In this document: positions 42,869-60,882 of the stretch, piece after piece
Numbering within the stretch: the stretch's first letter is position 1
Layout of the letters: every line of letters begins with the position of its first letter
Assembly (NCBI GenBank): GCA_963769885.1
Contig: CAVYNH010000006.1
Coordinates: 480,001-544,000, forward strand
Length of the DNA: 64,000 nucleotides
Direction of reading: 5' to 3'
From: Methanobacteriota archaeon
Lineage (GTDB): Archaea > Thermoplasmatota > E2 > DHVEG-1
Position numbers and translations under genes: made by a program
Notes under the pieces: generated by a model
The model's database searches: none
What the model saw: only the letters and a program-made list of their open reading frames with translations
Told to the model about the DNA's origin: nothing

Positions 42869-42973
42869 CCGGCAATTATTAAATACTACCGCCCCGCATA
42901 TCCCCGCCTGCCTCAGGGAAACACCCCCCTCAGACCTCCAGAGGACGTCCCTCTGGCCACGCTGCGAGACCGC

Positions 42974-43597
42974 ATGACCACTCCTCAGCCCACCCGCTCT
43001 CGCTCGACCCTTGCGGTCCTCATTAAACTCATCTCCAACTCGTTCTGGGAATTCGCCGACTACTGCGCCTACAAAAGCGAAGGCGCCGCCCGCCTCTACG
43101 ACAACCGCATCGGCGGCGACTACAAAGAAGAATACGAACGCTGCGGCATCGCGACCGCAGTCAACATCCTCCACATCGGCTGCGGCGCCTACCCTCTCAC
43201 CGAGATGGTCCTCGCCTCCGTCAGCTACGGACATGTCACCGGCATCGACAAAAACCCCTCCACCGTCACCAAAGCCCAACACGTCATCACCCGCCGACGC
43301 CTCACCGACCGCATCACCATCCACCACGGCGACGGCCTCACCTACCCGATCACCGCCTTCGACGCCGTCATTGTCTCCAGCTGCAGCATCCCCAAAATCG
43401 AGATCCTCGAACACCTCTCACAGACCACTAGCCCCCGCACCAACATCATCGTCCGCGAAGTCGACATCGCCTGCGCCGACATCGACCACTTCCTCGCCTC
43501 CCACCCCGAGATGACCACCCTGCAGCGCATCCGCCACAACCCCTTCCCATTCATCGAACCCATGGGCTGGGTCACCTTCCATATCCAGAAGCGATAA
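42974..43597 (+). CDS. Nicotianamine-synthase-like class I SAM-dependent enzyme (copy A)
   Basis: ILHIGCGAYPLT, GID, GDG..YP...FDAVIV, PK.EIL.HL, IIVR. Confidence 0.7.
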   Translation: MTTPQPTRSRSTLAVLIKLISNSFWEFADYCAYKSEGAARLYDNRIGGDYKEEYERCGIATAVNILHIGCGAYPLTEMVLASVSYGHVTGIDKNPSTVTKAQHVITRRRLTDRITIHHGDGLTYPITAFDAVIVSSCSIPKIEILEHLSQTTSPRTNIIVREVDIACADIDHFLASHPEMTTLQRIRHNPFPFIEPMGWVTFHIQKR

Positions 43598-43635
43598 TCT
43601 TTTTACCATCCCTCTTCGTTTCCCTCCTCGACCCA

Positions 43636-44658
43636 ATGCCTGATCAAACCCCGACCGAGACCCAACCTCGGTATCACAACCGCATCCTCAATTTCATAGC
43701 CACCTGGCGGTCCTTCCCTGCCTATGAGATGCTCAGCTACCTCTTCATGTACGCAGGCGCGGTCATGTTCGCCTACGGCATCCATCGCTACACCCCCCAG
43801 ACCTACCTCATCCTTATCCTAGCAATGGCGACGATGTACGCCGGATTCTTCGCCGCCGTCATCTGGAACGACATCACGGACCAGGACATCGACGCGGTCG
43901 TCCACCCGAACCGACCCATTCCTGGGAGCCGGATCTCACCGCGGCGGTTCTTCGCCATCGCCCTGGTATTCTCCGCCATGACGTTCCTGTTCGCCCTCCT
44001 CGTCAGCCCCTGGTGCTTCATCCTCGTGGGGACCGCCGCGCTCTTCGTCGCCGTCCACAACAAGTATCTGAAAAAAATAGTGAAATTTCCTGCTTACTCC
44101 GAGATTTTCACCCCGGTGCAATGGATCGTCGTCCCCTTATTCGGCTTCTTCGCCGTCTGGTCCGCGCTCCCAACTTGTGTGGATTTCACGATCACCGCGC
44201 CCCTGCTCGGCTCGTTGTCGATCGCGCGGGCGGACCTGCTGCCCATGGCCCTACTCGTGTTGTTTACCTATTTCACGGACGATGCCCATGACCTCGCGGA
44301 AGGCATCCATGATGCCGACGGCGACCGCCGGACCGGCGTGCGGACCTACGCGACCTCGTTCGGGCCACGGGTTGCGGCAGCCGTCTCGTTTTCCATGTTC
44401 CTCCTCTCCGGCATCCTCGGAATCCTCCTCTATCTCTACTCACTCCTCACCTTGGTTTTCCTTCTCCCATTCCTCGCCTTCTGGGGATACACGCTCTTCT
44501 TCTCTATCCAGTTGCTGCGGGAAAAAGATCCACAGCAACAAAAAGACATCGGGACAATCGTCGGCAGAAAAGGCTACAACCTTCTGTTGGTATCCTACGT
44601 GCTCATCTTCGTCGACGTCCTCATCCAGCTTCTGCTTAGCACGCCGAGAGGCTGCTAA
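43636..44658 (+). CDS. UbiA-family prenyltransferase (copy A)
   Basis: NDITDQDID...PNRPIP; IHDADGD...GVRT. Confidence 0.88.
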   Translation: MPDQTPTETQPRYHNRILNFIATWRSFPAYEMLSYLFMYAGAVMFAYGIHRYTPQTYLILILAMATMYAGFFAAVIWNDITDQDIDAVVHPNRPIPGSRISPRRFFAIALVFSAMTFLFALLVSPWCFILVGTAALFVAVHNKYLKKIVKFPAYSEIFTPVQWIVVPLFGFFAVWSALPTCVDFTITAPLLGSLSIARADLLPMALLVLFTYFTDDAHDLAEGIHDADGDRRTGVRTYATSFGPRVAAAVSFSMFLLSGILGILLYLYSLLTLVFLLPFLAFWGYTLFFSIQLLREKDPQQQKDIGTIVGRKGYNLLLVSYVLIFVDVLIQLLLSTPRGC

Positions 44659-45581
44659 ACAGTTGGGGCGAGGAGCTTGAGAAGGAGCGCCAGCTGCGCC
44701 CACAGCCGGTTCTCCGCCTCGTCGATGATAACGGACTGCGGGCCATGGGCCACGTCCTTGGTGACCTCTTCGCCGTAATAAATGGGCATGCAGTGCATGA
44801 AGATGGCGTCGGGCTTCGCCTTGCTCATCACCTCGGCGGTGACCGTATAGTCTTTGAGGTCCGCGAGGCGTTTCTTGCGATCCTGTTCGTACCAAAACGA
44901 GACCCAGGTGTCAGTCGCCACGACATCGGATGAGGCGACGGCATCGAGATCCGAGGTCACGGTAATGGTATGGTGCTTCGCTGCCGCGATCTCTTTCGCC
45001 TTCTGCACGTAAGAGTCGGCAGGCCAATAGGCCTTCGGGGCGATCACGGTCACGTCCATGCCCGTCAAGGCACAGCCGAGGAGGTAGGAATGCGTGAGAT
45101 TATCATCGCCGTCGCCGATGAAGGTGAAGTGAAGGCCCTCCAACCGGCCTTTTTTCTCCTTGATGGTCATGAGGTCCGCGAGGATCTGGCAAGGATGCTC
45201 GTACCGGTCCAGACCGTTGATGACGGGGACGGTCGCAGCCGCCGCGAGCCCTTGGAGCCTCTTTTCATCGATCGCCCGGTACATGATGGCGTCCACGTAG
45301 CGGGACATGACCAAGGCGACATCCTCGGGCGTCTCCCGGGTGCCGATGCCGATTTCGTCCTTTGAGAGAAAGATTGCATGGCCACCGAGCATCGTCATGC
45401 CGACTTCGAAGGAGATCCGGGTGCGGGTCGAGGCCCGCTCGAAGATCATGGCAAGGGTCTTCCCCTGGAGGTACGGGGTGTGCTTCCCGGCTTTCTTCAC
45501 CTGTTTTAGGCGGATGCCGAGGTCGATGATGCTGGTGATCTCGTCTTTCACATCGAGGATTGAAAGCACGTTTTTCTTCAT
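44655..45581 (-). CDS. argF: Ornithine carbamoyltransferase-family protein with altered acceptor motifs
   Basis: STRTR, HPCQ, HCMP, EAENR; DTWVSFW replaces DxWxSMG. Confidence 0.75.
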   Translation of the reverse strand: MKKNVLSILDVKDEITSIIDLGIRLKQVKKAGKHTPYLQGKTLAMIFERASTRTRISFEVGMTMLGGHAIFLSKDEIGIGTRETPEDVALVMSRYVDAIMYRAIDEKRLQGLAAAATVPVINGLDRYEHPCQILADLMTIKEKKGRLEGLHFTFIGDGDDNLTHSYLLGCALTGMDVTVIAPKAYWPADSYVQKAKEIAAAKHHTITVTSDLDAVASSDVVATDTWVSFWYEQDRKKRLADLKDYTVTAEVMSKAKPDAIFMHCMPIYYGEEVTKDVAHGPQSVIIDEAENRLWAQLALLLKLLAPTV

Positions 45582-45648
45582 GGAAGCAGGCTCCTTGTGA
45601 AATCCCCCTCCGTATATTAAGATTGTGAAGACCACCGAATCCAGAGCC

Positions 45649-46956
45649 TTATGGGAGGACGGTCTCCCTCGGGATCGAACTCGGATTAATTGCGGTATGC
45701 TGCCTGGAGAACCGGGGAGGGATGAGCTGCAGGGTCGTCGAGGTCTTCCTCTTCTTCGGATGCGACTCGACCTCCATCGTCAGCCCGAGGCCTTTGGGGG
45801 GTTTGAGGAAGGTGAAGCGGACGGCGCTGTGCCCATGCCGGGGTGCCTCGCGTAGGGGCTCGTTCTTGCACAGGCCCGTGAGAGGGACCGCATGGTCGCG
45901 GTCGGTGAAGGTGCCCTCGATTCTGCCGGGGAGTTCGCAGAGGACGTAGGCGGTGAAGAACTTCTTTCGTCTGGGGAGGTCGATGTATTCGTAGGATTCG
46001 CAGGTGGAGGTGAAGCGGAGGCGGAGGGTCTTGTCGTCGAGCCTGCCGAAGAGTTCGAGGTCGCTGGGGTAGTAGACGTCGTGGTCTTTGATGTAGCGGA
46101 CCTTGTTGTATTTGAAGTGGAGGTCGCAGAATTCGAGGTAGTGTCTGCCGTCGGCGGTGAGGTAGAGGGGGCCGAAGCAGGGGCCCTGGGTGAGCCAGAG
46201 GAGGGTGTTGCCGAAGAAGAAGCTCCAGTCGTTGTCGAAGACGCCCCAGAGCCAGTCGAAGCTCATCGGGTTGTTGTCGGTGGCGAAGCCGATCTTGGTG
46301 GGGAGATGGTGGTGGTGTTGGGAGAGCCACCAGTAGCCGAGGCGCAGGTAGGTGCCTAGGGTTTTGGGGACGCCGCTGACGGCCTGTAGCGGGTTTTCGT
46401 AGGACCAGTTGCCGTAGGCGTGCTCGAAGTAGCCTTTGCCGGTGAGAGTACGAGTCATCCCTTGGTGGGTCATGGTGCCGGTGAGGGTGAGGTGGGGGAT
46501 GAAGCCGTAGCGGTAGTGGTTCAGGCCAGCGGGGATGTAGCCGTTGGTGGTTTCCTGGGTGATCCAGTGGGGCAGCGCGCGGGCATCCAGGGTGATGTCA
46601 GCGGAAAAGGCGGCGTCCGGGTCGTGGAGGCGGAGGCGGTACTGTGGGTACAAGCCCTGCAGCGTGTTGTGTTTGTACCGCAGGTCGACGCGGTTCTTCA
46701 CGGTCGTAAGCTCGGTGAGAGGATCGTTAAGGTCTTTGTGCAGGACGCACTTGTGTGTGGTGAGGTCGAAGAGGACGTGTTGGTAGAAGCAGGAGGGCGG
46801 CTCGTGGGTGACGGCGAACGAGGTCATCAGGTTCCAGAGGTGCTGGTCCTCCGGTGTCGTGAAGAAGAGCTCCGTGGTCCACCATTCCTTGCGGATGGGG
46901 GCATGGTCGCCTTCATCCTCGAGGGTCCAGGGGTTCATGGGGTCGCGTGGTTCCAT
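45649..46956 (-). CDS. CrtC/AttH/tocopherol-cyclase-fold protein (copy A, no signal peptide)
   Basis: KEWW, L.GT.T..G.....TGKGYFEHAYG, FDWLW, YP..LEL. Confidence 0.65.
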   Translation of the reverse strand: MEPRDPMNPWTLEDEGDHAPIRKEWWTTELFFTTPEDQHLWNLMTSFAVTHEPPSCFYQHVLFDLTTHKCVLHKDLNDPLTELTTVKNRVDLRYKHNTLQGLYPQYRLRLHDPDAAFSADITLDARALPHWITQETTNGYIPAGLNHYRYGFIPHLTLTGTMTHQGMTRTLTGKGYFEHAYGNWSYENPLQAVSGVPKTLGTYLRLGYWWLSQHHHHLPTKIGFATDNNPMSFDWLWGVFDNDWSFFFGNTLLWLTQGPCFGPLYLTADGRHYLEFCDLHFKYNKVRYIKDHDVYYPSDLELFGRLDDKTLRLRFTSTCESYEYIDLPRRKKFFTAYVLCELPGRIEGTFTDRDHAVPLTGLCKNEPLREAPRHGHSAVRFTFLKPPKGLGLTMEVESHPKKRKTSTTLQLIPPRFSRQHTAINPSSIPRETVLP

Positions 46957-47091
46957 AGCAACGGCTCTTGCGCGCCTTCGACATGCCGGCGCGGAAATAT
47001 AACCTTTGTCTCCCTTCGGTTGATAGGGAAGGAGGATTTTATTGAGTCTCATCAAAGGAATAAGAAAAAAGAAATCAGGCGTATTGCCTGA

Positions 47092-47997
47092 TTAATTGAT
47101 TACGTTGAACTGCCAAGAGGTGGCGAGCACGTGTTGATCGCTATCGACTAAGATGTTGCCGTTGGGGTCACGGAACGCGGCATAGACACGGTACACGCCC
47201 TCGCCATTCTTTAAATCCCCTGCCCGGACAAGACCATTGAAAATCTGGTCCAAGGCAAGCTGCTGCCCCGGTCCAATCATCCTGGGACTCGTTTCATTGA
47301 CCACATCATTATCAAGGATCCATTCCTTGGAATCATGGAACTGCACTTGAATCGAGAGATACCCACTGAGATTCGTGGTTCCCGTATTCTTGATCTTCGA
47401 CTGGTTCTCATGGACGATAACAAGCCTTGGCGCGAAATCAGCTCCTTGTTCACTGTTGAAGAAGTCGACGTATTCATCCCCGGTCGGTTGCAGAGCGCAG
47501 ATGTCACGGCTGCTGCGCAGGCAGAGCTTCGTCCAATGGCTTATATTGATCCATTTCTGGCTTCTGTTACCGATGAGCTCAATGTCGTTGTACCCTTCGA
47601 CGAGATTAGCGGTATTCAAGGTCCCACTAATGTTGCTGTAATATGCTTTGTTATAATCTGTTGACTCAAGAGGATCTTTGGGGTGATCCGGCTGCCCGCT
47701 CTGAACCTGGATATTGAAATCGGTGTCGGAGTTATCGCCAGCATTATAGAGACTGAGTGTCACATTGCGGATGACCATGTTGCTGGGAAGCATCGACGTA
47801 TTGAAATACACATAGCCACGGTTGATAGTATAGGTCTGGGAGACCTTGCTTTGGCCGATAAAAATATCATAACAGGGTGTCCATACTGCGCCGTTCTCTG
47901 ATGTCGCCTGCCATGCATCAATATAATTCTCTTCAGAATGGTGGAGAAAGCCATCACTACTGCTGGAATCCACGATCAATGTTGGATCAATGATGAC
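47092..47997 (-). pseudogene. 3' fragment of a secreted protein gene truncated at an IS junction
   Basis: Frame begins at PVIIDPT against transposase DNA; no start or signal peptide; intact C-terminus. Confidence 0.7.
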
Positions 47998-48677
47998 CGG
48001 GCTGGCTGCTGGAGACGGTCCCCGATGCGAACACCGCACAGGACCACATCGGGGACATCCCCGTCGCCTACCTCGCCGACCTGTTGCAGGAGACCGTCCG
48101 CGACATGGATGGATGCGGGATGACCGTGATCATCGACGCCACCGGGCTGTCGTTGAACCAGTACGGCCAGTGGATCCGCGTACGGAATGGGAAGCGGAAG
48201 GCGAAACGGAAATTCATCAAGGTCCACCTCGCCGTGGACAAAGGCAGCGGCAAGATCCTTGTCGGCCTCAGCTCCAAAGGCTGGAAGCATGACCACAAGT
48301 TTGGGGTCATGCTCGTCAAAGCGCTCCGCAGGCTCACGGCACGGTCCGGCGGGACAATCAAAGCAGAGCTGATGGACTCAGGGTATCTCTCACGGGAGAT
48401 GACCGATGAGGTCGAGCGATCCCAAGCGAAGCCGTACATCAAGATGAAGAGCAACTCGACCACGAAGGCCCGGCGGAGCCGGGCATGGAGGCAGAACATC
48501 CGCCTCCAGAAAAACCACCCGGAAGAGTTCATGAAAGAATACTGCTATCGGGTGGTCATCGAAGGGATTATCTCTGCCTTCAAGCGGGTGTTCGGATCGA
48601 TGCTGGCGTCGAAGAAACGACGCCATCAAGACATCGAGGTGCTTTGCAGGCTCATTCTATGGAACTGTATGCACTAA
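47998..48677 (+). pseudogene. tnp: IS5-family DDE transposase lacking its N-terminus, frameshift near 48045
   Basis: IDATG, FIKVHLAVD, DSGY, Y..R..IE...S..KR; upstream TPHRT lies in another frame. Confidence 0.8.
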
Positions 48678-48710
48678 AACAGGAGGAAGAACGAATTTAC
48701 GGGCAACACT
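47998..48710 (+). mobile_element. Truncated IS5-family (IS903-like) element
   Basis: Transposase fragment plus candidate right end GAATTTACGGGCAACACT (48693-48710); left end not found. Confidence 0.75.
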
Positions 48711-48764
48711 AAAAGAGTCTTAAGTTTTAAATAATCGAAGTGTAATTATTTATCTGAGATAATC

Positions 48765-50303
48765 ATGATAAAGAAGAAAAATCATTTTTATTTCTTATTT
48801 ACTTTGTTGATAATTTTTTTTCAATTTGAAATAATAAATTTTTCTTATGCAATAAATATTGAAAAAAATCAACAATGGCCTATGTTTCATTATAATATAC
48901 AACGAACTGGAAGATGCTCTTTCGGTGTAAACCCACAAAATAGTACTCCTATTGTTAAATGGAAATATTTCACAACAAATATGGGATCTCTATCATCGCC
49001 TGCAATAGATGACAATGGTATACTCTATATTGGAACCTATGATTTACACAAGAGCTTTTTTGCCATAAATAAAAATGGGACAGAAAAATGGCATTTTGAT
49101 GCTGGTGACCTAGTTCGATCTTCCCCAGCTATCGGATCTGATGGAACAATTTATTTCGGTGCAGATAACGGTAATCTCTACGCTCTCTTACCAAATGGCA
49201 CTTTAAAATGGTGTATCAATCTTGGACTCGGATGGGTTATATCTTCACCGGTAATCGATAGCAATGGAGTTATATACGCAGCCTCGACAGCAAGCAGCAT
49301 GTTTTATGCTATATACCCTAATGGAACTTTAAAATGGTCCTTTCAAACGAATGACTGGATTTACTCATCACCTGCAATATCTGAAGATGGAACGATTTAT
49401 TTTGGTGCGAACGATCATTATCTCTACGCCATTTCACCTAATGGCTCGATGAAATGGAGATATAGTGCAGGACAGGAAATTCAATCCACCCCAAGTATTG
49501 ACTCTGCAGGTAATATTTACTTTGGTTCCTGGGATGATAACCTCTACGCTCTTTATCCTAATGGCACATTAAAATGGAAGATAAATGCAGGTGGCACCAT
49601 CGACGATTCATCCCCGGCAATTTCTGAGAACGGGACAATCTACATTGGTACGCTGAAAGGAGATATCCTAAGCGTTAGTCCAGGGGGGCATCTCAATTGG
49701 AGATATAGGACAGGGGACGAGATTTATTCATCACCAGCCATCGACCGCTATGGCATCATCTATTGTGGTTCATGCGATGGATATCTTTATGCATGCAATC
49801 CCAATGGAACGCTTCATTGGAGATTCAATCTAGGGTATCCAGTTATGTCCTCACCGGCTATTGACGAAAACGGAACCACTTATATCGCATGTTGGGGGCC
49901 ATATATATACGCCTTGTCCATCATTTACGATAATCATCCTTCTAAGCCTTCTATCAACGGTCAAGTAAACGGAAAAATAAACTATCCATATAACTATACT
50001 ATTGTCTCAACTGATATTGACAACGATAACATCTCCTACTACGTCAACTGGGGCGACGGCACCACCACCAACTGGACCACCCCCACCCACTCAAGCCAAC
50101 AGGTCATCCTATCGCACACCTGGCAGAAACGAGGCTCGTACACTATCAAGACAAAGGCCCAGGACGAACACGGCATGGAAAGCGACTGGGCCACCCTCAC
50201 CGTGAAGATGCCGTACCAGCCACCAAACTTCCCAATCTTACACTGGCTTTTGGACCGGTTCCCCAATGCCTTCCCCCTGCTTCACAGACTCTTCGGGTAT
50301 TAG
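48765..50303 (+). CDS. Secreted PQQ-like beta-propeller plus PKD protein with amphipathic tail
   Basis: WPMF; repeated SSPAI..DGTIYFG...LYA..PNGTLKW; WGDG; tail FPILHWLLDRFPNAFPLL. Confidence 0.9.
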   Translation: MIKKKNHFYFLFTLLIIFFQFEIINFSYAINIEKNQQWPMFHYNIQRTGRCSFGVNPQNSTPIVKWKYFTTNMGSLSSPAIDDNGILYIGTYDLHKSFFAINKNGTEKWHFDAGDLVRSSPAIGSDGTIYFGADNGNLYALLPNGTLKWCINLGLGWVISSPVIDSNGVIYAASTASSMFYAIYPNGTLKWSFQTNDWIYSSPAISEDGTIYFGANDHYLYAISPNGSMKWRYSAGQEIQSTPSIDSAGNIYFGSWDDNLYALYPNGTLKWKINAGGTIDDSSPAISENGTIYIGTLKGDILSVSPGGHLNWRYRTGDEIYSSPAIDRYGIIYCGSCDGYLYACNPNGTLHWRFNLGYPVMSSPAIDENGTTYIACWGPYIYALSIIYDNHPSKPSINGQVNGKINYPYNYTIVSTDIDNDNISYYVNWGDGTTTNWTTPTHSSQQVILSHTWQKRGSYTIKTKAQDEHGMESDWATLTVKMPYQPPNFPILHWLLDRFPNAFPLLHRLFGY

Positions 50304-50421
50304 GCTCTCATTTATCAAGTAAGAAACGGAGACATGATACCTTATCCTTTTCCTCTTTTTCCTCATTCAAATACTTGCACTGCTTAAAGGTTTATATGCG
50401 TTCGGTGAATTCATCCAATCC

Positions 50422-51402
50422 GTGCGAGAGACGAGCGAAAGAACGGTGGCGTCACGGCTGTTCGCCCATTTGGAGACGATGCGGCCGTACACCCTGTTCT
50501 GGTGCGGGCTGGTCAGCCTCGCCGGTGCCGTCCTCGCCTCACAAACCTTGCCTTCGAAGTGGCTGTTGATTTTTATTGTCCCAATCCTCGGCTGGATCGC
50601 CGGCCTCTACCTCGCGGACTACTCCGACCGGAATCTGGATCGGGTCCAGAAACCGCACCGGCCCATCCCCTCCGGGCGCATCACCCCACGGGAGGCTCTC
50701 AGCGTGGGCGCGGTCTTCGCCGTTCTCGGTCTCATCCTGACCTTCCTGCTCAGCCTGGTGAACGTCCTACTGACGTTCCTCGCCGCAGCCCTCGTCTACC
50801 TTTACGCTCACTATGCCAAACCGCGCGGACTCTGGGGGAACTTGACGAGAGGCACGTTGACCATGACGACGTTCTTCTTCGGCGTCGCCGCTGTCCTGCC
50901 ACTCACATCGCTGTCTCTTCCATTAGTCTGGTTCGCCGTGGTCTTCTTCATCCATGATACGAACAGCAACATCATCGGCGCCTTGCGGGATGTCAGCGGC
51001 GACCGGGCCGCCGGCTGCCAGACCACGCCAGTCCGGTACGGCATGCGTATAGCGCTCCTCATTTCCCTGGCGTTGTCCCTGCTGTATTTGAGCCTGGCCG
51101 TCATCCTCGTCCTCATCGCGTCTCCCCTTCCCCACTTCACACTGTTCCTTCTCATCCTCGCCACAGGAATCGTTCTCCTAGGAATCATGTATGCTCTTCT
51201 TTTCCGGTCCATCCAAGTATCGTCTCAGCTTCGGATGCTGCATGCGCATGAGCTCTTCGTCGCCGAACGTATCCTGTTCGCCTCCGCCTTCATCTTCGGC
51301 ATCTTAAACGTCAGCTCCTTCACTCTCACTCTGGTGCTTAGCGCACTACTCCTCACCCTCCTCTCTCAGCACCTCCTCCGCCGTCGGTACGAGCTCACCT
51401 GA
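50422..51402 (+). CDS. UbiA-family prenyltransferase (copy B, DGGGP-synthase-like)
   Basis: MRPY, ADYSDRNLD...PHRPIPSG, LRDVSGD...T.P..YG. Confidence 0.88.
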   Translation: MRETSERTVASRLFAHLETMRPYTLFWCGLVSLAGAVLASQTLPSKWLLIFIVPILGWIAGLYLADYSDRNLDRVQKPHRPIPSGRITPREALSVGAVFAVLGLILTFLLSLVNVLLTFLAAALVYLYAHYAKPRGLWGNLTRGTLTMTTFFFGVAAVLPLTSLSLPLVWFAVVFFIHDTNSNIIGALRDVSGDRAAGCQTTPVRYGMRIALLISLALSLLYLSLAVILVLIASPLPHFTLFLLILATGIVLLGIMYALLFRSIQVSSQLRMLHAHELFVAERILFASAFIFGILNVSSFTLTLVLSALLLTLLSQHLLRRRYELT

Positions 51403-51544
51403 CCAAGGACCTGTTTCTTTTCGAGGAACACTCCATGCTCAACAATATGATTTTTACAAATAAAGAAAAAGGTTACAATTACCTTTAAATAGACAGTGGA
51501 TAGTCTTAAAAGGTTCTATAAAGATTACATAGCGGAGGAAGGCA

Positions 51545-52336
51545 ATGAAGAAGCTGATGGTTGTTGGTATTATTCTATTATTCTGTTTTTCAAGCACACC
51601 TGCATTAGGCATCAGCAAAGAAATTCCATGTAGTAGTGGAAGAGATCCTGTTTGCTACCCTGTTCTTAATGGAACGATAGGCTGGAATGGAGCTTATGTT
51701 AGTCCTGTCCAAGTCTCTTTCTTCTATAATGAAGAGGTAGTGCTTGTTCAGTACAATTTTGGGGGAAATTGGATAAATTACACTGAACCCTTTACCATTT
51801 ACGGGGAAGGTTCAATCGTCTTCATGTTTCAGTACCTTGATGTTTATGGTCACTGGTCTCAAACCTATGTAATGCCACCAATTAAAATTGATTATACTCC
51901 ACCTACGGTCACAGCAGATCTTCGATGTTTAATAAATAAACTCTCGATAACCGCTGACGTTCAAGACAGTGTCAGTGGCATCGCCTATGTTGAGTTTTTC
52001 CTAAATGATGTGTTAATGTTCAACGATTCTGACATGCCGTATCAATGTTTTTTATACCCCTTCCCCAGATTGGACGGCCTCTGTATTCAAATAGTCGTAT
52101 ATGACCGCGCAGGGAACATGAATGAAACCAAGGTTTATTTCTATCACGTTCGGGGGTCCGTTCTTCGTCTTGGACAGACAACAGAATACTATCAATGCTT
52201 CGCCCTTGCATTGAAGATCTCTGACCACTGGCATTACTTTGAAAAAATCGAACTATCCAAGGTCCATTTTGGACGCACTGGTCTATTCTTCTTCAATGGA
52301 TTCTTCTTATTCAAAGAGCCACTTCCTACAAGATAA
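51545..52336 (+). CDS. AT-rich secreted Ig-like protein
   Basis: Signal peptide; NGT.G.NG.Y.S.V; D..SGI..VEF, YDRAGN. Confidence 0.75.
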   Translation: MKKLMVVGIILLFCFSSTPALGISKEIPCSSGRDPVCYPVLNGTIGWNGAYVSPVQVSFFYNEEVVLVQYNFGGNWINYTEPFTIYGEGSIVFMFQYLDVYGHWSQTYVMPPIKIDYTPPTVTADLRCLINKLSITADVQDSVSGIAYVEFFLNDVLMFNDSDMPYQCFLYPFPRLDGLCIQIVVYDRAGNMNETKVYFYHVRGSVLRLGQTTEYYQCFALALKISDHWHYFEKIELSKVHFGRTGLFFFNGFFLFKEPLPTR

Positions 52337-52427
52337 AAAGAAGCGTGTCAATAAGGCTGGAGAAAGTCTTAGAAGGGGAAAAAACCAGTACCTTTAAACC
52401 ACCAGGAGTGTTTTCCCTCCGAGCCGA

Positions 52428-53078
52428 ATGCCCTCCCCCCTGACCAGACTCTTCTCCTTCGCCCAAAAAATGGTCTTCGTCGAACTCGGCAACCGGTTCC
52501 CCAACAAAGAAATCAAACGACTCATGGACTACGGCTTCATCATCTTCGAAAAAATGGGCGTCAAATTCCCCGCCATCGCCCACCTCTACCTCCAATTCTA
52601 CTCAAACGTCGTCCAACAGGAAACCATCCTCGCCAAGATCACCCCCGCCGACCGCGTCCTCGTCATCGGCAGCGGCTCACTCCCCGCCACCCCCATCCTC
52701 ATCACCCGCACCACCGGCGCAACCGTCGTCAGCATCGACCACGACCAGTCCGCCGTCAAAGCCAGCACCCAATTCATCCGCAACATCCACCTCGACCACA
52801 GCCTCTCCATCGCCCACGGCGAAGGCCTCACCTACCCCGTCAAGGACTTCACCGTCGTCTACATCCTCTACGGCGTCAAAAACACCCAAGCCGTCCTCGC
52901 CTCACTCCCCAGCAGAATCTCCGACGGCTGCCGCGTCGTCCTCCGCCTCATGTGCGACCAACACCGAAAAATCATCGGCGACCTCGACATCACCAGCTAC
53001 TTCACCATCAAAAACCAGGTCCATACCACCGCACTCGGCAGCTTCGAGACCTTCCTCCTCGAAAAGAAACCGACTTAG
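52428..53078 (+). CDS. Nicotianamine-synthase-like class I SAM-dependent enzyme (copy B)
   Basis: FYSNVVQQE, VLVIGSGSLPATPI, SID.D, GEG..YP, VVLR. Confidence 0.7.
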   Translation: MPSPLTRLFSFAQKMVFVELGNRFPNKEIKRLMDYGFIIFEKMGVKFPAIAHLYLQFYSNVVQQETILAKITPADRVLVIGSGSLPATPILITRTTGATVVSIDHDQSAVKASTQFIRNIHLDHSLSIAHGEGLTYPVKDFTVVYILYGVKNTQAVLASLPSRISDGCRVVLRLMCDQHRKIIGDLDITSYFTIKNQVHTTALGSFETFLLEKKPT

Positions 53079-54394
53079 AACCCGAAATCCTTCTTATAAT
53101 ACCGCCGGAACGTGTAGTTCGTCCCCGCCGGCAACACCCCCGCGAACTTCTTCGTCCGCCACATCACCCGCACAAACCGCGACACCACATCCGGCATCGA
53201 ATAAAACTCCCTGGCGACCCGCCGCGCCCCGTCGAACAACTCCTCAGGCGACATCAGCTTGGGCTGGAACACCACCTCAACCTGATTATACCGCGACCAG
53301 TCCCGCGTCAAAATACGGCCCTCACGCTCCAGACGATCAAACAACGGCGTCCCCGGATACGGCGTCAAGATATTCACCTCCACCGCATCCAACTCCCACT
53401 CATACATCTTCTGCAGCGTCGCATCAAAGATATCCGGCGCATCCTCATCAAACCCAAAAATAATCCCCCCCTGCACCGTCATCCCATGATCATGGATCCG
53501 ATCAATCGTCCTCTTGAAATCCTCAACCTTGTTCACAACCTTCTTGATCCCGTTCAACGCCGCCTGACTCACCGACTCGAACCCCACGAACCACTCCACA
53601 CAGCCGGACCGCCTCGCCAGGTCCAAGAACTCGTCATCCACCTTCCCCAGCACGTTCGCATTCCCATTCCCCGCCCAGCCCTTATGCACCCGCTGACGGA
53701 TCAACTCCTTCATCAACGCCCGCGTGTACGCCGGGCTCACCGTCAGACTCGGATCATGGAACACATAAATCGGGTTCGGCATCGCCTTGATCTCAGCGAC
53801 CACACTCTCCACCGGCCGATGCTTCACCCCATGCTTACAGAAACTCGCAATCGCACAAAACTCACACTTATTCGGACACCCACGCGTCGACTGCACCGCC
53901 CCGATCAGCGGATTCTGCCGAATCAAATCCCGACGCAACGGCGGAATCTTCGCCATGTCAAAATCCGGGCTCGGCCCATAGAACGGCTGCAACTCACCCT
54001 TCGACGCATCCTCGAGGACCTGCGGCCAGGTCAGCTCAGCCTCGCCAAGGACCACGCAATCCGCATGCTCCTTTGCCTCCGCCGGCATCGCGGTCGGATG
54101 GTACCCGCCGAGGACAACCTTTCTGCCTAGCCTACGGAACTCATCAGCCAGGTCGTAGACCCGGGGTGCCGTCATGGTGTAGCAGGTGATCCCCACGAGG
54201 TCAGCCGGCTCATTGAAATCAAGGTCTTCGTAGTTCTCATTAATTATCTTTATCTCATGACACGGCGGGGTGATTGCCGCGAGATGAGGCAGCGTGATGA
54301 CCGGGTACCCGAAAAGTATCGAACTCCACGATCCTTTGTCCGAGTACGTCGTTGCTCCGTGTTCAATCCGCGGGAATACCAGTAAAATCTTCAT
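53075..54394 (-). CDS. Cobalamin-binding radical SAM protein
   Basis: N-terminal B12 domain (VVLGGYHPT, GEAE); RGCPNKCEFC; GFES; TPYPGT. Confidence 0.92.
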   Translation of the reverse strand: MKILLVFPRIEHGATTYSDKGSWSSILFGYPVITLPHLAAITPPCHEIKIINENYEDLDFNEPADLVGITCYTMTAPRVYDLADEFRRLGRKVVLGGYHPTAMPAEAKEHADCVVLGEAELTWPQVLEDASKGELQPFYGPSPDFDMAKIPPLRRDLIRQNPLIGAVQSTRGCPNKCEFCAIASFCKHGVKHRPVESVVAEIKAMPNPIYVFHDPSLTVSPAYTRALMKELIRQRVHKGWAGNGNANVLGKVDDEFLDLARRSGCVEWFVGFESVSQAALNGIKKVVNKVEDFKRTIDRIHDHGMTVQGGIIFGFDEDAPDIFDATLQKMYEWELDAVEVNILTPYPGTPLFDRLEREGRILTRDWSRYNQVEVVFQPKLMSPEELFDGARRVAREFYSMPDVVSRFVRVMWRTKKFAGVLPAGTNYTFRRYYKKDFGF

Positions 54395-54481
54395 GAGCCA
54401 CCTGCATATGCTACGTCTCCGTATTTAACGTTTCTTTAGATGCCAGGGGAGGCATGGGCATCCGCTCGCTCTGTGGATTTT

Positions 54482-56620
54482 TTATGGGATGCTTCTCGGT
54501 CCTTTCCCTTTGTACACTGCTTCCGCGAAGTTGATTTGGCGCATGCGCGGCTGTGAAGCGACTTCTTCGAAGTAATGGGCGGAGAGGCCAGCTATCCTCC
54601 CGTAGATGAAGAACGCCTTTGCCATCGCAGGCTCGAGGTTCATATCTGCCACGATTGCTCCGATCACCCCGTCGACGTTAATCGGGAGGCTCATCCCTCT
54701 CACCTGCTCAAAGACCGTGCTCACTATCTTTGAGAGCTGTACATGTTTGCCAGCGATGCCGGTCTGAGCGGCAAGCGCCCATAGCACGTCGCGGCGCGGG
54801 TCTTTGGTATGCAGTCGATGCCCGAGGCCTTCGATGCGTTTTCCTTCTTCGACGTAGGCCCTCATGATCTCCCTGGTGGCCTGCGCGACGTCGATGTTCT
54901 CCTTCTCCGACTTTCTGATGCATTCATTGAAGAGCGCTGCCGCCTTCGCGCCAGCGCCGCCATGAACATCGGTGATCGCGCCGACGCCTTGAGCCACGGC
55001 GACCTCGAAGGGCGCCCTCGTGGATGCCGCGATGAGCGTCGCTTGGGCAGACGGCGGGGTCACCCCATGGTCGACGCAGGCGACAATCATCGCCTCGATC
55101 ATCCGGGAATGGTGTTCATTCACCGTTGTATTGCCCGTCACCGCGTGATAGATAACATGGGAGAACGGTTCGTCCCCGTGAAGGTTCTCCACCGCGTTTT
55201 CCGTGCCTAATACCCCGCTGAGGTATCGGGCGACCCGGCCGAGGCAGAACACGGTTTTTTTCACCGCTCCCTCGGTGCCCCCCTCGGGATACTGTGCAAG
55301 CTCCTCGTCAAGGACGAAGTATTTGACCAGTGTCTTTGAGATATCCTCGTTCTTCATGCGGGTGACTTTCGGGATGGGCCGTTTTGCGGCATCAACCGCG
55401 ATATTCCGCATCTCCTCAAGTGTTTTTTTCTCAGGGAACTCTCCTTTGACGAGGAGGTAGGCAGTCTCAAGAACACTCTTTTTCTCCACGATGTCCTGCA
55501 ATGAATACCCGGAGATCACCAGGTTATTGGGCATGACCTTGGTGATGAGCGTCCCCCAGCCGGGTTTCTTGGAGGGGGCATCCCAGATCGTCTTCATCTT
55601 CTTGTAGTAATGCTCCACGTCGAAGTAGGTTTTATTCGCAAGTCTCCGCTGCACCTCGGTGATGAGGTCGTACTGGCTGTTCACCACGGGGACGCCGGCG
55701 TCTTCCAACGCGGTTTTCTTCGACTGGAACGTCCCGTAGACCTGCCCGGGGGAGACGATCGCGCCCGCATGACCCATGGTTTTCCCCTCGGGGGCGTGCG
55801 CCCCGGAGATCAACGCGACGAGCGGCTTTGGGTATTTCTTCGGGTTTTTCTTCATGTCCTCTGCGAGGAGCTCTTCTTGGCATCCGCCGATTTCCCCAGC
55901 GACGACGACGAGGTCGGTGTTCTTGTAGGCCATGGCGAGTGGGACAAGGTCGCGGAACGTCGAGCCGATCGCACCGTCCCCGCCGACGCCGATGACCGCG
56001 TTCTGTGCGATGCCGACGCTTGCCAACGCATCTGAGAGATGGTACAGGATGGCGCCGCTGCGAGAGATGATAGTGACCCCTTTCGGCCCAAACGCCTCTG
56101 GGGAGACTTCCTCCGGGTAGAACACGTCCGGGAGCATCCCTGCCTTGATTCCCTCAGGAGGGAAGATGACGCCGGGGGTGTTCCCGCCGATGAGCACGGT
56201 GTTGTGCTTCCGTGCTGCGACGAGGATGTCACGGACGTCTTTCAACGGAATCCCTTCGCTGATGAGGATGACGACGGGGATGCCTGCGTCGATGACGTCG
56301 ATGGTCGCATCCTTCGCGGTGGAATAATGCCGCCAGATGCTCGCGACCGCGATGCCGGGATGTTCTTTGATGCATTCGCCGATGGTATCGTACACCGGGA
56401 TCGTCTCAAGAAGCCGTGTGCCTCCACGGCCGGGGGCGATCCCTGCCGTGATGGTCGTCCCGTACTGCTGCATGAGCTCCGCGTGTCGCGTCCCTTGTCT
56501 TCCAAGGCCGACGACCACGGTTTCGATGATCCCGGTTTTTTTTATTTTTTTCGCAAGGTCTGGTCGTTTACTCTCGATGATGTAGAAGAGCATTCCTTGG
56601 TCGGGGGGAACGAGTCTCAT
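54482..56620 (-). CDS. SucD-like CoA-ligase alpha subunit fused to citryl-CoA-lyase/citrate-synthase domain (AclA-like architecture)
   Basis: GGNTPG, SRSG, GEIGG, MGHAGA; then DHG..PPS, HGGAG, GLGHR.H..DPR, NVDG; ATGA overlap with the beta gene. Confidence 0.85.
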
Positions 56621-57900
56621 GGTTTCCACCCCTTGGATTCGAACGCTTTTTGGATGCCCTCGCGGATCACATCTGCCATGATCCGCTGGTTTCCTACGTA
56701 AATAGTGACCTGTTGTAATGCCTCTGGATACTCTGCTTTTGCTCGTTCGAGGAATGTCCGTGCGCTGGGGAGGTCGGTGCCGACCATCCTGCCGAAGATC
56801 GGGACCATTCGCCTTCCGCTCTCGTAGCGTTCTTTGACTGCTTGCACCATACCGCGGATGAAGATGTCGCAGCTGGAGATGCCGCCGAACCGCGAGGTCA
56901 CGATCAGGTCGACAACCGGGTAGTCCATGAGGAGGTGGAACATCTCGGCGACCCGGTTCTGCGGGGGGCCTCCGCCGCTGTCCATGAAATTCACGGGGAC
57001 GACCCGGTCATGGAAGAAGCGGCTTCCTATCGTGGCGACCTCGTCGATGGAGAAGATCCCGTAGCCTGCGCCGCCGGGGATGAGGCCGACGTAGAGTTTT
57101 TCCGGGTCTTTCGTAAAAGGCTGTGGCAGGAGATCGATGTACGGGAACCCGGCGGACTGCGCGCGCAGCTCGTTCTTGGTTCGTTCCGCTACATCATGTC
57201 GTTTTTCGGTGATGCCGAGCAGTTCAAGGAGCTCGACTTGTCTGAAGAGCGCGTTGTCGTCGAGGACGAGTTTTGCGTCTGCGGCGACAACACCTGTCGG
57301 TGTGATGATCAGTGGATTGATCTCGCAGAGTCTGGCGTCGAATCGCTGATAGGTCGCGTACACCTTCGTAATGATTTCAGCAAGGGTGCTCGTCATCTCT
57401 TTTTTACTCCCGAGTTGCGCGGCGAGGGACGCAGCGAGGTCATGGGTTAGATTTTTGGATAGTTCCTTGGCGTTATCCGGTATTTCCCTCTTGATGATCG
57501 CTTCTGGCCTCTCCGCTGCCACCTGTTCGATGTCAACGCCTCCTGAGGCACTGACGATGACGACGTTGTTGAATGTCGTCGGGTCCATGGTGATGCCAAT
57601 GTAGCACGCCCCGATTTCCTGGACTGCTGCTTCAATAAGAATGCATTCCACGGGGAATCCTTTGATGGTGAGTGTGAACAACTCCGTCGCGATTCTTTTT
57701 GCTTCCTCCCTGTTTTTCGCTTTCTTGATGCCGCCTGCTTTGCCTCTGCCGCCGACCAGTACCATGGACTTCAGCATCACCGGGAATTCCATTGGTAACG
57801 GATCGAGCTCTGTGGGAGAACGAATCACGCCGTACTGGTTCGGGGTGGGGATTCCCATGTTCTGGAATACTTTCTTCGCCTCGTACTGGTACAGCCTCAT
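56617..57900 (-). CDS. SucC/AclB-like ATP-grasp CoA-ligase beta subunit
   Basis: L.QYEAK, GGRGKAGGI, GGVDIE, EINPL, DDNALFRQ, GGAG, NF.D.GGG. Confidence 0.88.
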   Translation of the reverse strand: MRLYQYEAKKVFQNMGIPTPNQYGVIRSPTELDPLPMEFPVMLKSMVLVGGRGKAGGIKKAKNREEAKRIATELFTLTIKGFPVECILIEAAVQEIGACYIGITMDPTTFNNVVIVSASGGVDIEQVAAERPEAIIKREIPDNAKELSKNLTHDLAASLAAQLGSKKEMTSTLAEIITKVYATYQRFDARLCEINPLIITPTGVVAADAKLVLDDNALFRQVELLELLGITEKRHDVAERTKNELRAQSAGFPYIDLLPQPFTKDPEKLYVGLIPGGAGYGIFSIDEVATIGSRFFHDRVVPVNFMDSGGGPPQNRVAEMFHLLMDYPVVDLIVTSRFGGISSCDIFIRGMVQAVKERYESGRRMVPIFGRMVGTDLPSARTFLERAKAEYPEALQQVTIYVGNQRIMADVIREGIQKAFESKGWKP

Positions 57901-58433
57901 TTCTTCTGATCTCCTTTCGTCTGCATCGTCTTCTTGATCTCAAAATCGATGAAATCGCAATGATGCACGATGATTGCCTCCGGCGTCCGGTTCATCGCGT
58001 CACCCTCGTGTGAGTGTGCGGCGATGATGTGGACGACCTCGGGGGGGAGCCCGGCTGCTTGGGCGAGGGACGCCCCGATCGCGGGATGGCGTTGGGTCTG
58101 ACCGGAGCGCTTCTCGACCTTCCCGTTGACCATCTCGTACTCGAGGAGTTTGCCGACGTCGTGAAGGAGGGCGCCGGCGATGAGGTAGTCGGTGTTGAGC
58201 TGCTCTTCCCTGGCGCTGGCGGCGGCCCAGACGAGCTTGGTGATGCGTCTGGTGTGGTCGACAAGGCGGCCGGAGTCGGGAAAAATGAGGGTGAAGGGGA
58301 CGTCGTCGAAGCTGGTCCATTTGCCTTGGTCTTTGGCGGTGGTCCAGACCTGTTGGACTTTCTGGCCGAGTCCTTTGTTGTGGATGAGGTTGAGCTCTGG
58401 GAACATGGTTTCGAGGTTTTCATGGGGTGTCAT
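57897..58433 (-). CDS. HD-domain (HDIG) metal-dependent phosphohydrolase
   Basis: H...GALLHDVGK...H...AHS...HHCD; ATGA overlap with the beta gene. Confidence 0.88.
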   Translation of the reverse strand: MTPHENLETMFPELNLIHNKGLGQKVQQVWTTAKDQGKWTSFDDVPFTLIFPDSGRLVDHTRRITKLVWAAASAREEQLNTDYLIAGALLHDVGKLLEYEMVNGKVEKRSGQTQRHPAIGASLAQAAGLPPEVVHIIAAHSHEGDAMNRTPEAIIVHHCDFIDFEIKKTMQTKGDQKK

Positions 58434-58588
58434 GTTGTTGTTCGCCTCCTTCCGTTTACCGGGGTGGGGTAATTCTCCTTGGATTTATTTAAGCTTGGTT
58501 CGCGGGGTATGGGTAAGGGATGTACAGGAAGTTATTAATAAATAGAAGGGGGAAGTCTTCTGTAACAGTTTGGTGAGAATTGAGATCT

Positions 58589-59872
58589 ATGCCTCGGAGA
58601 CTGCGGACGGTCGACGTCTGTATCGTTATCGGGTTGCTGGTCGCTTCGGCCGGGTTTTTGTATAAGGCTGAGGTGTTATCGCCGTTGTTTCCTGTGTCTC
58701 ATCCTCCTGTTGTTCCTGTGAATAATCAGACGGTGGGTCCGTCCGTGTTGCCGCCGGTGTCGTTGGTTCCGTCGTCGCGGCGTGACGTGTCTGGGGAGGA
58801 TGAGGGGGTGCATTTCGATGGGTTGGCGGTGTCGCGGGAGTGGTGGTATTTTGCTGGGGTCTTCAACGGCTCGGGTTCTGCGTTGAAGAATTGGGGGGTT
58901 GGGGTGAGTTTTGCGCATCTGGCGCCGGGGGATTTGTTGGGGACGGCGAAGCCGGATTTACTGGTGATCAGTCTGTTGGATCCGAGCGGGGATCATGTGG
59001 GGGGGTTGGTGAATAAGCGGCATTATCTCGGCGTGTTGAAGAGCGGTACCCTGGTGGCGAGTTCGCCGGGGGTGAAGTTGAGTTATGAGTCGTCGTGGGT
59101 GGAGGGGACGGCGCCGTCGTGGCATGTGCATGCGGAGGACCCTGCCATTGATGGGGCGCATACGGTGGTTGTGGATCTGGATTTCCATGCGGTCAGTCTG
59201 CCGGTGTGGACGCTGGGGAGCCGGGCGTTTGCATTGTCGAATAGTTCGCTTGCGAGTTACGTGTTCCTTGGATGTGAGATTTCTGGGACGGTGACCATCG
59301 ATGGGGTTGAATCGGCGGTGTCTGGGGTGGGGACGTATGAGCATGCGTGGTCGCCGAAGATTGTGAGCCGCGCGGAGATCAACGGGTGGGATTGGTGCAG
59401 CCTAGTGTTGGAGAATGGCTGGACAGTGTACGTGTCTGATTTCTTGCCTGCACCGGCGGTCGTCACGCAGAAGACGCCGGCGTTGTCGCCGTTTGGGACC
59501 GTGATTGTGACGACGGATCGGGGAGAGACGTGCACAGAGCTGAAAAACGTGGGAATCAAGGTGACGGCGAGCGATGAGCGAGTGTTCCCGCTGGTGAAGA
59601 TGCCGTCGGCGTTCAATCTTGAGGCGTCGCCGAGCCTGAACCCAAGCTACCTGGTGAGCCAGTCGCTGCTGTTGGGGTCGAAGTTGTCGCTGTCTGCGGA
59701 TTGTTCGGTACTTAGTTCGGTGGATAAAATCTGGAAGTTCCCCACGTATGTTGGGATGCGGATCGGGTACGTGCAGGTGAGCGGGGAGCTGTCGTGGATT
59801 GATGCGGACGGGTCGCATTCAGTTCCGTTTTCCGGAGTCGGTGTCTCCTGGGACATGCGGGCGTTGCTGTAG
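58589..59872 (+). CDS. CrtC/AttH/tocopherol-cyclase-fold protein (copy B, N-terminal membrane anchor)
   Basis: DEGVH...REWWYF, ISGTVTIDG....VSG.G.YEHAW, GWDW. Confidence 0.7.
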   Translation: MPRRLRTVDVCIVIGLLVASAGFLYKAEVLSPLFPVSHPPVVPVNNQTVGPSVLPPVSLVPSSRRDVSGEDEGVHFDGLAVSREWWYFAGVFNGSGSALKNWGVGVSFAHLAPGDLLGTAKPDLLVISLLDPSGDHVGGLVNKRHYLGVLKSGTLVASSPGVKLSYESSWVEGTAPSWHVHAEDPAIDGAHTVVVDLDFHAVSLPVWTLGSRAFALSNSSLASYVFLGCEISGTVTIDGVESAVSGVGTYEHAWSPKIVSRAEINGWDWCSLVLENGWTVYVSDFLPAPAVVTQKTPALSPFGTVIVTTDRGETCTELKNVGIKVTASDERVFPLVKMPSAFNLEASPSLNPSYLVSQSLLLGSKLSLSADCSVLSSVDKIWKFPTYVGMRIGYVQVSGELSWIDADGSHSVPFSGVGVSWDMRALL

Positions 59873-60846: not shown

Positions 60847-60882
60847 GTTTTATCCTTCTCTAGCAAGTATACATTGACCTCC

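Follow-up and report, generated by a model that had tools for sequence, protein, structure and literature searches.

A lineage-specific gene island of sediment Thermoplasmatota with NAS/CntL-type SAM enzymes and DGGGPS-like prenyltransferases: a candidate locus for isoprenoid membrane lipids

CntL (staphylopine) and MtNAS (thermonicotianamine synthase), characterised enzymes related to nicotianamine synthase (NAS), transfer the 3-amino-3-carboxypropyl group of S-adenosylmethionine (SAM) and make metallophore precursors. In MtNAS the residues Glu81 and Tyr107 deprotonate the acceptor amine (PMC10491745). The N-terminal domain shapes the acceptor site in MtNAS and in CntL, and the catalytic glutamate is Glu81 in MtNAS and E84 in CntL. 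In the synthesis of the betaine lipid diacylglyceryltrimethylhomoserine (DGTS), BtaA/BtaB attach an aminocarboxypropyl group from SAM to a membrane lipid and modify it further. BtaA acts on diacylglycerol and occurs in bacteria and algae. It is not homologous to NAS/CntL (PMC10491745). For archaeal tetraethers it has been described that Ted, a cobalamin (B12) radical SAM enzyme, desaturates the chains and that the overlapping AttH-like Hgs hydrates them to hydroxylated glycerol dialkyl glycerol tetraethers (Garcia et al., bioRxiv 10.1101/2025.10.20.683597). Here we describe an archaeal gene island which combines two short NAS/CntL-type SAM enzymes (NASa and NASb), two UbiA prenyltransferases (UbiAa and UbiAb) with digeranylgeranylglyceryl phosphate synthase (DGGGPS) as nearest solved relative, two AttH/CrtC-like proteins (CrtCa and CrtCb) and a B12 radical SAM enzyme. 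The island is located in a stretch of 64,000 nt, called the window in the following, which corresponds to positions 480,001-544,000 of contig CAVYNH010000006.1 (C6) of assembly GCA_963769885.1 (G000).

The genome has a size of 2.09 Mb and is 92% complete. Because the homologues carry names of metagenome-assembled genomes (MAGs) of sediment Thermoplasmatota or Thermoplasmatales, including SM1-50 and SG8-52-3, we treated the host lineage as Thermoprofundales/MBG-D-like. Thermoprofundales-like archaea are among the commonest archaea of marine sediments and are uncultured. Genes were called with a listing of open reading frames (ORFs) and with Pfam and NCBIfam family scans of the window proteins; this recovered all seven genes named in a preliminary description of the region, at or near the positions given there. 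For the comparison with relatives about 100 genome stretches around their NAS-like genes were annotated by tblastn, ORF clustering and Pfam. A motif search for related loci, based on the clade-C sub-alignment of the NAS-like family, provided 63 species-level loci from other Thermoplasmatota.

We interpret the locus as a lineage-specific island for the making or tailoring of isoprenoid (ether) membrane lipids, which consists of two sub-modules and belongs to one family-level clade of sediment Thermoplasmatota. To this interpretation we assign about an even chance of being correct. In the literature we found no described counterpart for the pairing of NAS-like and UbiA proteins in archaea, and the literature on Thermoprofundales lipids and on butanetriol tetraether biosynthesis yielded no gene assignment for the island.

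Enzyme families of the island

NASa (42974-43597, plus strand, 207 aa) and NASb (52428-53078, plus strand, 216 aa) are class I SAM enzymes with CntL and MtNAS as best solved relatives. NASa belongs to clade A of the NAS-like family and is encoded 38 bp upstream of UbiAa; NASb belongs to clade B, and its gene is convergent with that of the B12 radical SAM enzyme (4-bp overlap). The Pfam model NAS (PF03059) gave scores of 26.2 bits for NASa and 25.5 bits for NASb, just below the gathering score of 27.1, and the NCBIfam CntL model NF033601 gave 39 and 43 bits compared with a cut-off of 350. Among the 45 members of the family, PF03059 was the model matched most often (42 of 45). A profile of these members detected CntL with 78.7 bits (E 3e-21) and MtNAS with 53 bits (2e-13), whereas the best methyltransferase reached 33 bits (2.6e-7). 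The residues E65, G81, G83, P86 and D104 (NASb numbering) are invariant in the family, and Y54 and R173 are near-invariant. These conserved positions align with identical residues of CntL, namely the Tyr, the Glu, the glycine-rich motif GSGAYPMT, the sequence IDID with the acidic Asp of beta-2, and the C-terminal Arg; the motif GxGxxPxT of the NAS type is present in the family. A Foldseek search with the AlphaFold2 model of NASb (pLDDT 92) returned MtNAS and CntL on all of ranks 1 to 8. The model aligned with MtNAS over 186-198 columns with a TM-score of 0.72-0.76, compared with at most 0.59 for ordinary methyltransferases.

Profile, motif and model all favour CntL/MtNAS over generic methyltransferases, in line with the earlier description of the two proteins as NAS-like. 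On the basis of these matches we regard the NAS/CntL kinship of the short SAM enzymes as solid; that they transfer an aminocarboxypropyl and not a methyl group is something we infer. CntL and MtNAS, their best profile and structural matches, share with the window proteins the Rossmann core, the motif GxGxxPxT and the aligned Tyr, Glu, Asp and Arg. They differ in length (264-298 aa compared with 207-216 aa) and in the gene context, since the window genes neighbour membrane prenyltransferases, ligases and radical SAM enzymes, without metallophore partner genes. The model of NASb has three N-terminal helices only, and the profile alignments begin at about residue 106-110 of CntL and at about residue 43 of the query; the Tyr is kept in the matching helix of the NAS-like family. 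A full-length (about 300 aa) tandem NAS-like pair in Methanocalculus has no island genes within 8 kb and was uninformative on the island, as were matches in CPR bacteria, Dehalococcoidia and one Mollicutes MAG, which likewise lack island genes.

UbiAa (43636-44658, plus strand) and UbiAb (50422-51402, plus strand) are members of the UbiA superfamily. Both score above the cut-off of PF01040 (105.7 and 114.3 bits) and contain two intact Asp-rich motifs, which are NDITDQDID and DADGD in UbiAa and DYSDRNLD and DVSGD in UbiAb; about 8 and about 10 transmembrane segments are predicted. UbiAb is DGGGPS-like, with 136.6 bits for PRK12884 (cut-off 269) and 119 bits for the DGGGPS model (cut-off 296), and matches the structure of the M. 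jannaschii DGGGPS (6m31) over its full length with an E value of 7e-21. UbiAa reached 64 bits with the same DGGGPS model, remained below the cut-off of all NCBIfam equivalogs and matched 6m31 with an E value of 2e-8 in the region of the first motif only. With the models for MenA, 4-hydroxybenzoate and homogentisate prenyltransferases, scores of 18-47 bits were obtained for the two proteins compared with cut-offs of 226-430. Chlorophyll synthase was the second-best solved relative of both, and no structure of the MenA, UbiA or COQ2 type was among their matches in the PDB. The scores place both proteins on the DGGGPS/chlorophyll-synthase branch, below every curated cut-off.

The expectation that these prenyltransferases are not of the ordinary types was borne out: neither of them reaches the curated cut-off for DGGGPS, MenA, UbiA or homogentisate prenyltransferase, and a better DGGGPS candidate, with 167 and 237 bits, is encoded elsewhere in the genome (C6:354412-355320). 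The genome contains 16 UbiA-family genes (PF01040), all nearest to the PRK12884/DGGGPS models and none reaching a curated cut-off; their positions include C4:31611-40087 (four genes within 9 kb), C7:437253-439161 and the C6 position given above. Compared with DGGGPS, the nearest solved relative, the window proteins have the same Asp-rich motifs and multi-transmembrane architecture, but they are far below the equivalog cut-offs and represent only two of the 16 paralogues. Within the family, 16 of 24 genomes carry an orthologue of UbiAa; the 16 genomes from outside the family have none.

CrtCa (45649-47055, minus strand) is a putative AttH/CrtC-like isoprenoid hydratase without transmembrane segment; its score with PF07143 is 20.7 bits (cut-off 22.5). 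For CrtCb (58580-59872, plus strand), whose longest ORF starts at a TTG codon 9 nt before the previously assumed start at 58589, an AttH-like double beta-barrel with an N-terminal hydrophobic helix (residues 8-26) is predicted. CrtCb had no Pfam hit, but was connected to CrtCa by BLASTP (E 1e-8), and its AlphaFold model (pLDDT 74) matched AttH (2ich, 7e-14) and kievitone hydratase (7a0q, 6e-11). In the AttH/CrtC-like family PF07143 matched 8 of 19 members, all weakly. Of the fold proposed in the preliminary description (CrtC/AttH/tocopherol cyclase) the AttH type is supported by the CrtCb model, whereas neither protein matched tocopherol cyclase in Pfam or NCBIfam. The proposed analogy to tocopherol or chromanol synthesis thus found no support, and the combination of AttH-like proteins with a B12 radical SAM enzyme is better compared with Ted/Hgs.

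The B12 radical SAM gene (53075-54394, minus strand) encodes 439 aa with matches to PF02310 (57.5 bits), PF04055 (52.2 bits) and DUF4070. A cluster motif CxxxCxxC (CPNKCEFC) is located at residue 176. With a B12-binding domain and the CxxxCxxC core the product is predicted to be a class B (cobalamin) radical SAM enzyme. It reaches no curated family, and the models of the BchE and HpnJ types are far under their cut-offs. Orthologues with 60-77% identity occur throughout the family, beside NAS-like, PaaK-like or AttH-like genes.

Gene order in relatives

The linkage of the genes was looked for in related genomes and was found to be conserved. The gene families of the island recur together in dozens of species-level genomes, often in the same order and on the same strand, with small gaps or overlaps. 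Within 8 kb of the NAS-like gene (many loci stop at contig ends), the 63 motif-found loci contained a PaaK-like ligase in 35, a UbiA in 31, a B12 radical SAM enzyme in 28, an AttH/CrtC-like protein in 21 and a short-chain dehydrogenase/reductase (SDR) in 14 cases. Directly adjacent pairs were counted with a gap of <400 bp in the 62 of these loci which kept hits. The most frequent pair was NAS-PaaK-like with 28 loci, followed by UbiA-SDR, SDR-NAS and B12 radical SAM-PaaK-like with 12 each, NAS-UbiA with 11 and B12 radical SAM-AttH-like with 7.

In the same-genus genome G001 (L022) the genes are contiguous in the order NASa-UbiAa-OTC-CrtCa-UbiAb-NASb-ACL-HD-CrtCb. The common order of the family, exemplified by loci L044, L048, L050, L100, L112, L117 and L119, is NASa-UbiAa-OTC-like(-)-AttH-like(-)-UbiAb-SDR-NASb-PaaK-like ligase-AttH-like(-)-B12 radical SAM(-), in some cases a second B12 radical SAM, and then citrate lyase/ACL-HD-CrtCb-AcnX-UbiD-mevalonate kinase, where (-) indicates the minus strand. 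A second frequent layout is GATase-like-UbiAa-NASb-PaaK-like(-)-B12 radical SAM(-)-B12 radical SAM(-). The adjacency of NASa and UbiAa recurs in L022, L100, L112, L117 and L119, and the order UbiAb-SDR-NASb was found in L044, L048, L050 and 12 further loci. The SDR of the relatives hits Epimerase, 3Beta_HSD and NAD_binding_4 and is therefore of the reductase type. Orthologues of CrtCa adjoin B12 radical SAM or UbiA genes. CrtCb has kept its place in L048-L051, L095 and L037/L038, flanked by the HD gene on one side and by AcnX genes on the other. A sister family (L053, L055, L057, L073, L074, L076, L082 and L085) possesses a core operon PaaK-like-B12 radical SAM-NAS-like with overlapping genes. 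This operon has a divergent helix-turn-helix regulator of the HVO_A0261 type, and UbiAa is not present in the sister family.

The preliminary description had regarded the region as a doubled gene set with highly diverged paralogues. The divergence is evident: the paired NAS, UbiA and CrtC genes show only 26-32% identity over partial alignments, which excludes a recent duplication. The doubling itself did not hold. For UbiAb, two further UbiA genes of the genome are nearer relatives than UbiAa, the nearest genomic paralogues of CrtCa and CrtCb are C6:118443 and C7:494089, and NASa and NASb are located in clades that split at the base of the family tree (support 100/99). As the UbiA and CrtC genes are not mutual nearest paralogues, a modular duplication was rejected as well. 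The postulated copy-wise pairing of UbiA and NAS-like genes is swapped among genera, since UbiAa neighbours a NAS-like gene of clade B or clade D in many genera and one of clade A in some only.

Flanking genes, inserts and losses

Between UbiAa and CrtCa lies a divergent gene of the ornithine carbamoyltransferase (OTC) family (44655-45635, minus strand). The gene and UbiAa converge with an overlap of 4 bp, and CrtCa lies 13 bp upstream of the gene. With 350 bits it is above the cut-off of TIGR00658 and contains the motifs STRTR and HPxQ, as does ArgF. It differs from ArgF in the substrate loop SMG, which is changed to S[F/L/I]W (DTWVSFW in the window), and in HCLP, which is replaced by HCMP (FMHCMP in the window); both changes were present in 12 of 12 island-linked orthologues. 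The gene is always located beside UbiAa and convergent with it. Apart from it, PyrB is the sole member of the transcarbamylase family encoded by the genome, which is 92% complete; no argG was detected there, and argH was a weak hit only. A role as housekeeping ArgF was rejected on these grounds. Because of the changed loop, PyrB as sole other family member and the failure to find argG, we consider the OTC-like protein a probable member of the island with a changed substrate. It is one of the conserved members that the preliminary description had not included; the others, present in relatives, are the PaaK-like ligase, the SDR, the second B12 radical SAM enzyme and the GATase-like gene.

Upstream of NASa two membrane proteins are encoded on the plus strand, an LPG_synthase_TM protein resembling the flippase domain of MprF (39080-40162, PF03706 150.8 bits) and a DedA/VTT-domain protein (40200-40835, PF09335 82.2 bits). 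The genes most often located next to NASa orthologues of other genera (L027, L029 and L038) are those for LPG_synthase_TM proteins, together with mevalonate kinase. In other genera LPG_synthase_TM directly adjoins NASa orthologues and is sometimes fused to a methyltransferase domain (533 aa).

On the other side, an ACL-like citrate-cleaving operon with an HD hydrolase (54482-58433, minus strand) forms a flank that is syntenic in relatives and is a possible source of acetyl-CoA. The same position is occupied by CitF/CitE-like genes and HD in L048-L051. At 54482-57900 the window contains an ACL-like pair of SCS-type subunits and a fused citrate-synthase-like domain; other genera have CitF and CitE-like genes, always followed by HD and CrtCb. 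The large subunit of AcnX (62852-63973, minus strand), of the phosphomevalonate dehydratase type of the archaeal mevalonate pathway, is supported by its L038 orthologue with 543 bits for PF04412. A UbiD-type decarboxylase and mevalonate kinase follow just past the end of the window (G000 orthologues at C6:545574-547846). The adjacency of citrate-cleaving and mevalonate genes to the island, as described earlier, was found to be kept across genera.

The GC content decreases to 0.35-0.48 at 47.0-50.0 kb and 51.5-52.5 kb compared with about 0.58-0.61 elsewhere in the window. The first AT-rich block (47092-50303) contains a DNRLRE protein (minus strand), a 197-aa DDE transposase ORF (plus strand) and a secreted PQQ beta-propeller/PKD protein (plus strand) and is not part of the island. 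The second is a Big_7 ORF (51545-52336, plus strand), which occupies the slot of the reductase-type SDR gene of the relatives and is probably a replacement and not an island member. In G001 the first block is absent, so that CrtCa abuts UbiAb, and a gap of 60 bp between UbiAb and NASb is found in the Big_7/SDR slot. The GC dips and this contiguous layout, with UbiAb beside NASb, agree with the earlier view that the set is nearly contiguous once the AT-rich inserts are removed. The insertion sequence reported at 47.1-50.3 kb is reduced to the 197-aa transposase ORF; terminal repeats were looked for and none were found, and an intact element was rejected. AT-rich genes for secreted or surface proteins (DNRLRE, PQQ beta-propeller/PKD, Big_7 and NosD/beta-helix) are scattered through the GC-rich island at these two regions and at 41252-42433 and 60070-62351.

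The PaaK-like ligase, the reductase-type SDR, the second B12 radical SAM enzyme and the GATase-like gene of the relatives have been lost from the island in the window. A divergent pair of PaaK-like and B12 radical SAM paralogues survives at C4:186391-189173, and a weaker PaaK-like ORF (E 7e-19) is present at 1923-3323 of the window. Three long ORFs without family hits, at 42530-43414 (minus strand), 52952-54130 (plus strand) and 40167-40802 (minus strand), lie opposite NASa, the radical SAM gene and DedA and are artefacts caused by the high GC content. For one of these ORFs tblastn even gave matches in relatives, owing to conservation of the sense gene.

A possible lipid pathway and its alternatives

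In the proposed pathway a first sub-module would tailor the chains: the B12 radical SAM enzyme and the AttH/CrtC-like proteins may act on isoprenoid chains in analogy to Ted/Hgs, with a radical desaturation or methylation and a subsequent hydration that would give a tertiary alcohol. A second sub-module would form the polar end, in which the two DGGGPS-branch prenyltransferases may link a polar acceptor of a non-standard kind with a polyprenyl chain. The NAS/CntL-type enzymes would use SAM as donor of 3-amino-3-carboxypropyl and not of methyl groups and could alkylate an amine or hydroxyl of the acceptor or of a lipid head group. The amino-acid-like group could be further modified by the divergent transcarbamylase and, in relatives, also by the PaaK-like ligase and the reductase-type SDR, and the upstream LPG_synthase_TM and DedA proteins could move the product across the membrane. 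The presence of mevalonate kinase, LPG_synthase_TM and DedA near clade-A NAS-like genes provides a supporting context for a lipid. We advance only tentatively, and consider rather doubtful, the more specific proposal that the NAS/CntL-type enzymes transfer the aminocarboxypropyl group to a membrane lipid or to a precursor of it and, with the DGGGPS-like enzymes, the carboxylate-activating ligase, the reductase and the new transcarbamylase, make an undescribed class of archaeal ether lipids with amino-acid groups, which might be free of phosphorus or of the ureido type. The likeness to BtaA/BtaB, the placing of a SAM-derived aminocarboxypropyl group on a membrane lipid with subsequent modification, would exist only under this hypothesis; the lipid acceptor of the island is hypothetical.

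The comparison with Ted/Hgs has similar limits. Both systems, judged from the description of Ted/Hgs, comprise a genomically linked archaeal cobalamin radical SAM enzyme and an AttH-fold protein, and in relatives of the window the two genes are adjacent and co-directional in 7 of 62 loci. In the window, however, the radical SAM gene and CrtCa share a strand but are separated by about 6 kb that include UbiAb and NASb, and the radical SAM enzyme has 439 aa, while the search for Ted took proteins of at least 500 aa (10.1101/2025.10.20.683597). In the same study Thermoplasmatota were without Hgs homologues at the thresholds applied (10.1101/2025.10.20.683597). The length of 439 aa and this taxonomic survey disfavour orthology to Ted/Hgs.

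These differences from Ted/Hgs weigh against the island as a lipid locus, and so do a number of further observations. The NAS-like proteins stay under the Pfam and NCBIfam cut-offs, and as single sequences they are matched by generic methyltransferase models with about the same strength as by the NAS model. NASa and NASb lack about 45-65 residues of CntL/MtNAS at the N-terminus; an equivalent of Glu81/E84 could not be placed in the family, whose members commonly have an acidic residue at the position 13 before the Tyr, and a search for longer or fused NAS-like proteins found none, which is weak evidence. In another lineage of Thermoplasmatota (L040, L075, L077, L079-L081, L084 and L103) a single short NAS-like gene is located amid housekeeping genes; one flank is formed by a NAD-kinase-like gene and a pyridoxal phosphate enzyme, the other by ribosomal protein S8e, SRP19 and a resolvase-like gene, with no lipid genes nearby; the ancestral role of these enzymes thus need not be lipid-related. 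The core operon of the sister family is without UbiA. The B12 radical SAM gene, part of the set in the window and in relatives, is absent from this site in the same-genus genome G001. The substrates of all the proteins, the transfer of aminocarboxypropyl groups and a product of lipid nature are what we infer.

In a rival explanation the NAS-like proteins would be ordinary methyltransferases, each UbiA/methyltransferase pair would make a small molecule that is prenylated and methylated, for instance a quinone-like electron carrier, in the manner of MenA/MenG or UbiA/UbiE, and the B12 radical SAM enzyme would add C-methyl groups. The class I Rossmann fold, the models Methyltransf_25/31, which match as well as NAS for single sequences, weak matches to the models of UbiG, MpqE, CbiT and demethylmenaquinone methyltransferase, and the action of PaaK-like ligases on aryl acids are in its favour. 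We nevertheless regard it as unlikely, since the profile scores CntL and MtNAS 20-45 bits higher than any methyltransferase, the same two proteins lead the structural matches, and the glycine-rich motif is the GxGxxPxT of NAS and not the usual methyltransferase motif. The UbiA proteins obtained only 18-47 bits with the MenA, UbiA and MqnP models (cut-offs 264-430), and no genes for aromatic-ring biosynthesis were seen in the island. A modification of tetrapyrroles or cofactors, with a B12 radical SAM enzyme of the BchE/BchQ type, a CbiT/BchM-like SAM enzyme and tail addition resembling ChlG or heme O synthase, is improbable. BchE is the best NCBIfam model for the radical SAM enzyme, but its 115 bits are far below the cut-off of 481; the UbiA proteins hit chlorophyll synthase models at 50-84 bits (84 compared with a cut-off of 313 for ChlG), and models of the DGGGPS type score higher for both, even though chlorophyll synthase ranks second among their solved relatives. 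Many homologues are named 'precorrin-6B methylase 2' in the source data, but no tetrapyrrole biosynthesis gene was present in the island of any relative examined, and isoprenoid chains agree better with the AttH-like hydratases and with the mevalonate genes nearby.

That the NAS-like enzymes make a soluble metallophore of the nicotianamine or opine type, with the prenyltransferases as unrelated neighbours, would agree with the function of their closest characterised relatives, as CntL and MtNAS make precursors of such compounds. We consider this decidedly improbable: the conserved neighbours of the NAS-like genes include neither an opine dehydrogenase (CntM) nor a histidine racemase nor a transporter for metallophores, the adjacency of NAS to UbiA, SDR and PaaK-like genes is conserved with small gaps on the same strand, and the N-terminal acceptor domain is truncated. 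Finally, the genes might be unrelated accessory genes gathered in a variable region without a common pathway. AT-rich inserted genes and a transposase fragment are present in the window, the gene content differs between genera, and some of the UbiA adjacency could be due to chance because the genome has 16 UbiA paralogues; the synteny, with the same families, order and strand in dozens of species-level genomes, largely refutes this explanation and makes it very improbable. The gene identities, folds and motifs and the conserved linkage of the island are observed independently of the choice between these explanations.

The island provides concrete candidate genes for unexplained ether lipids of sediments, among them hydroxylated, methylated or nitrogen-bearing lipids, some of which are used as environmental proxies. 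Beside genes for isoprenoid precursors, it contains types of enzymes whose remodelling of archaeal tetraethers has only recently been demonstrated, and the 16 UbiA genes in a genome of 2 Mb point to an unusually diverse repertoire of prenyl lipids in a host that belongs to one of the most abundant groups of benthic archaea. Transfer of aminocarboxypropyl groups to lipids by the NAS-like enzymes would extend the known chemistry both of the NAS family and of archaeal membranes. In that case the island would encode the first NAS-family enzyme that is directed at lipids, together with a new chemistry of archaeal head groups or backbones.

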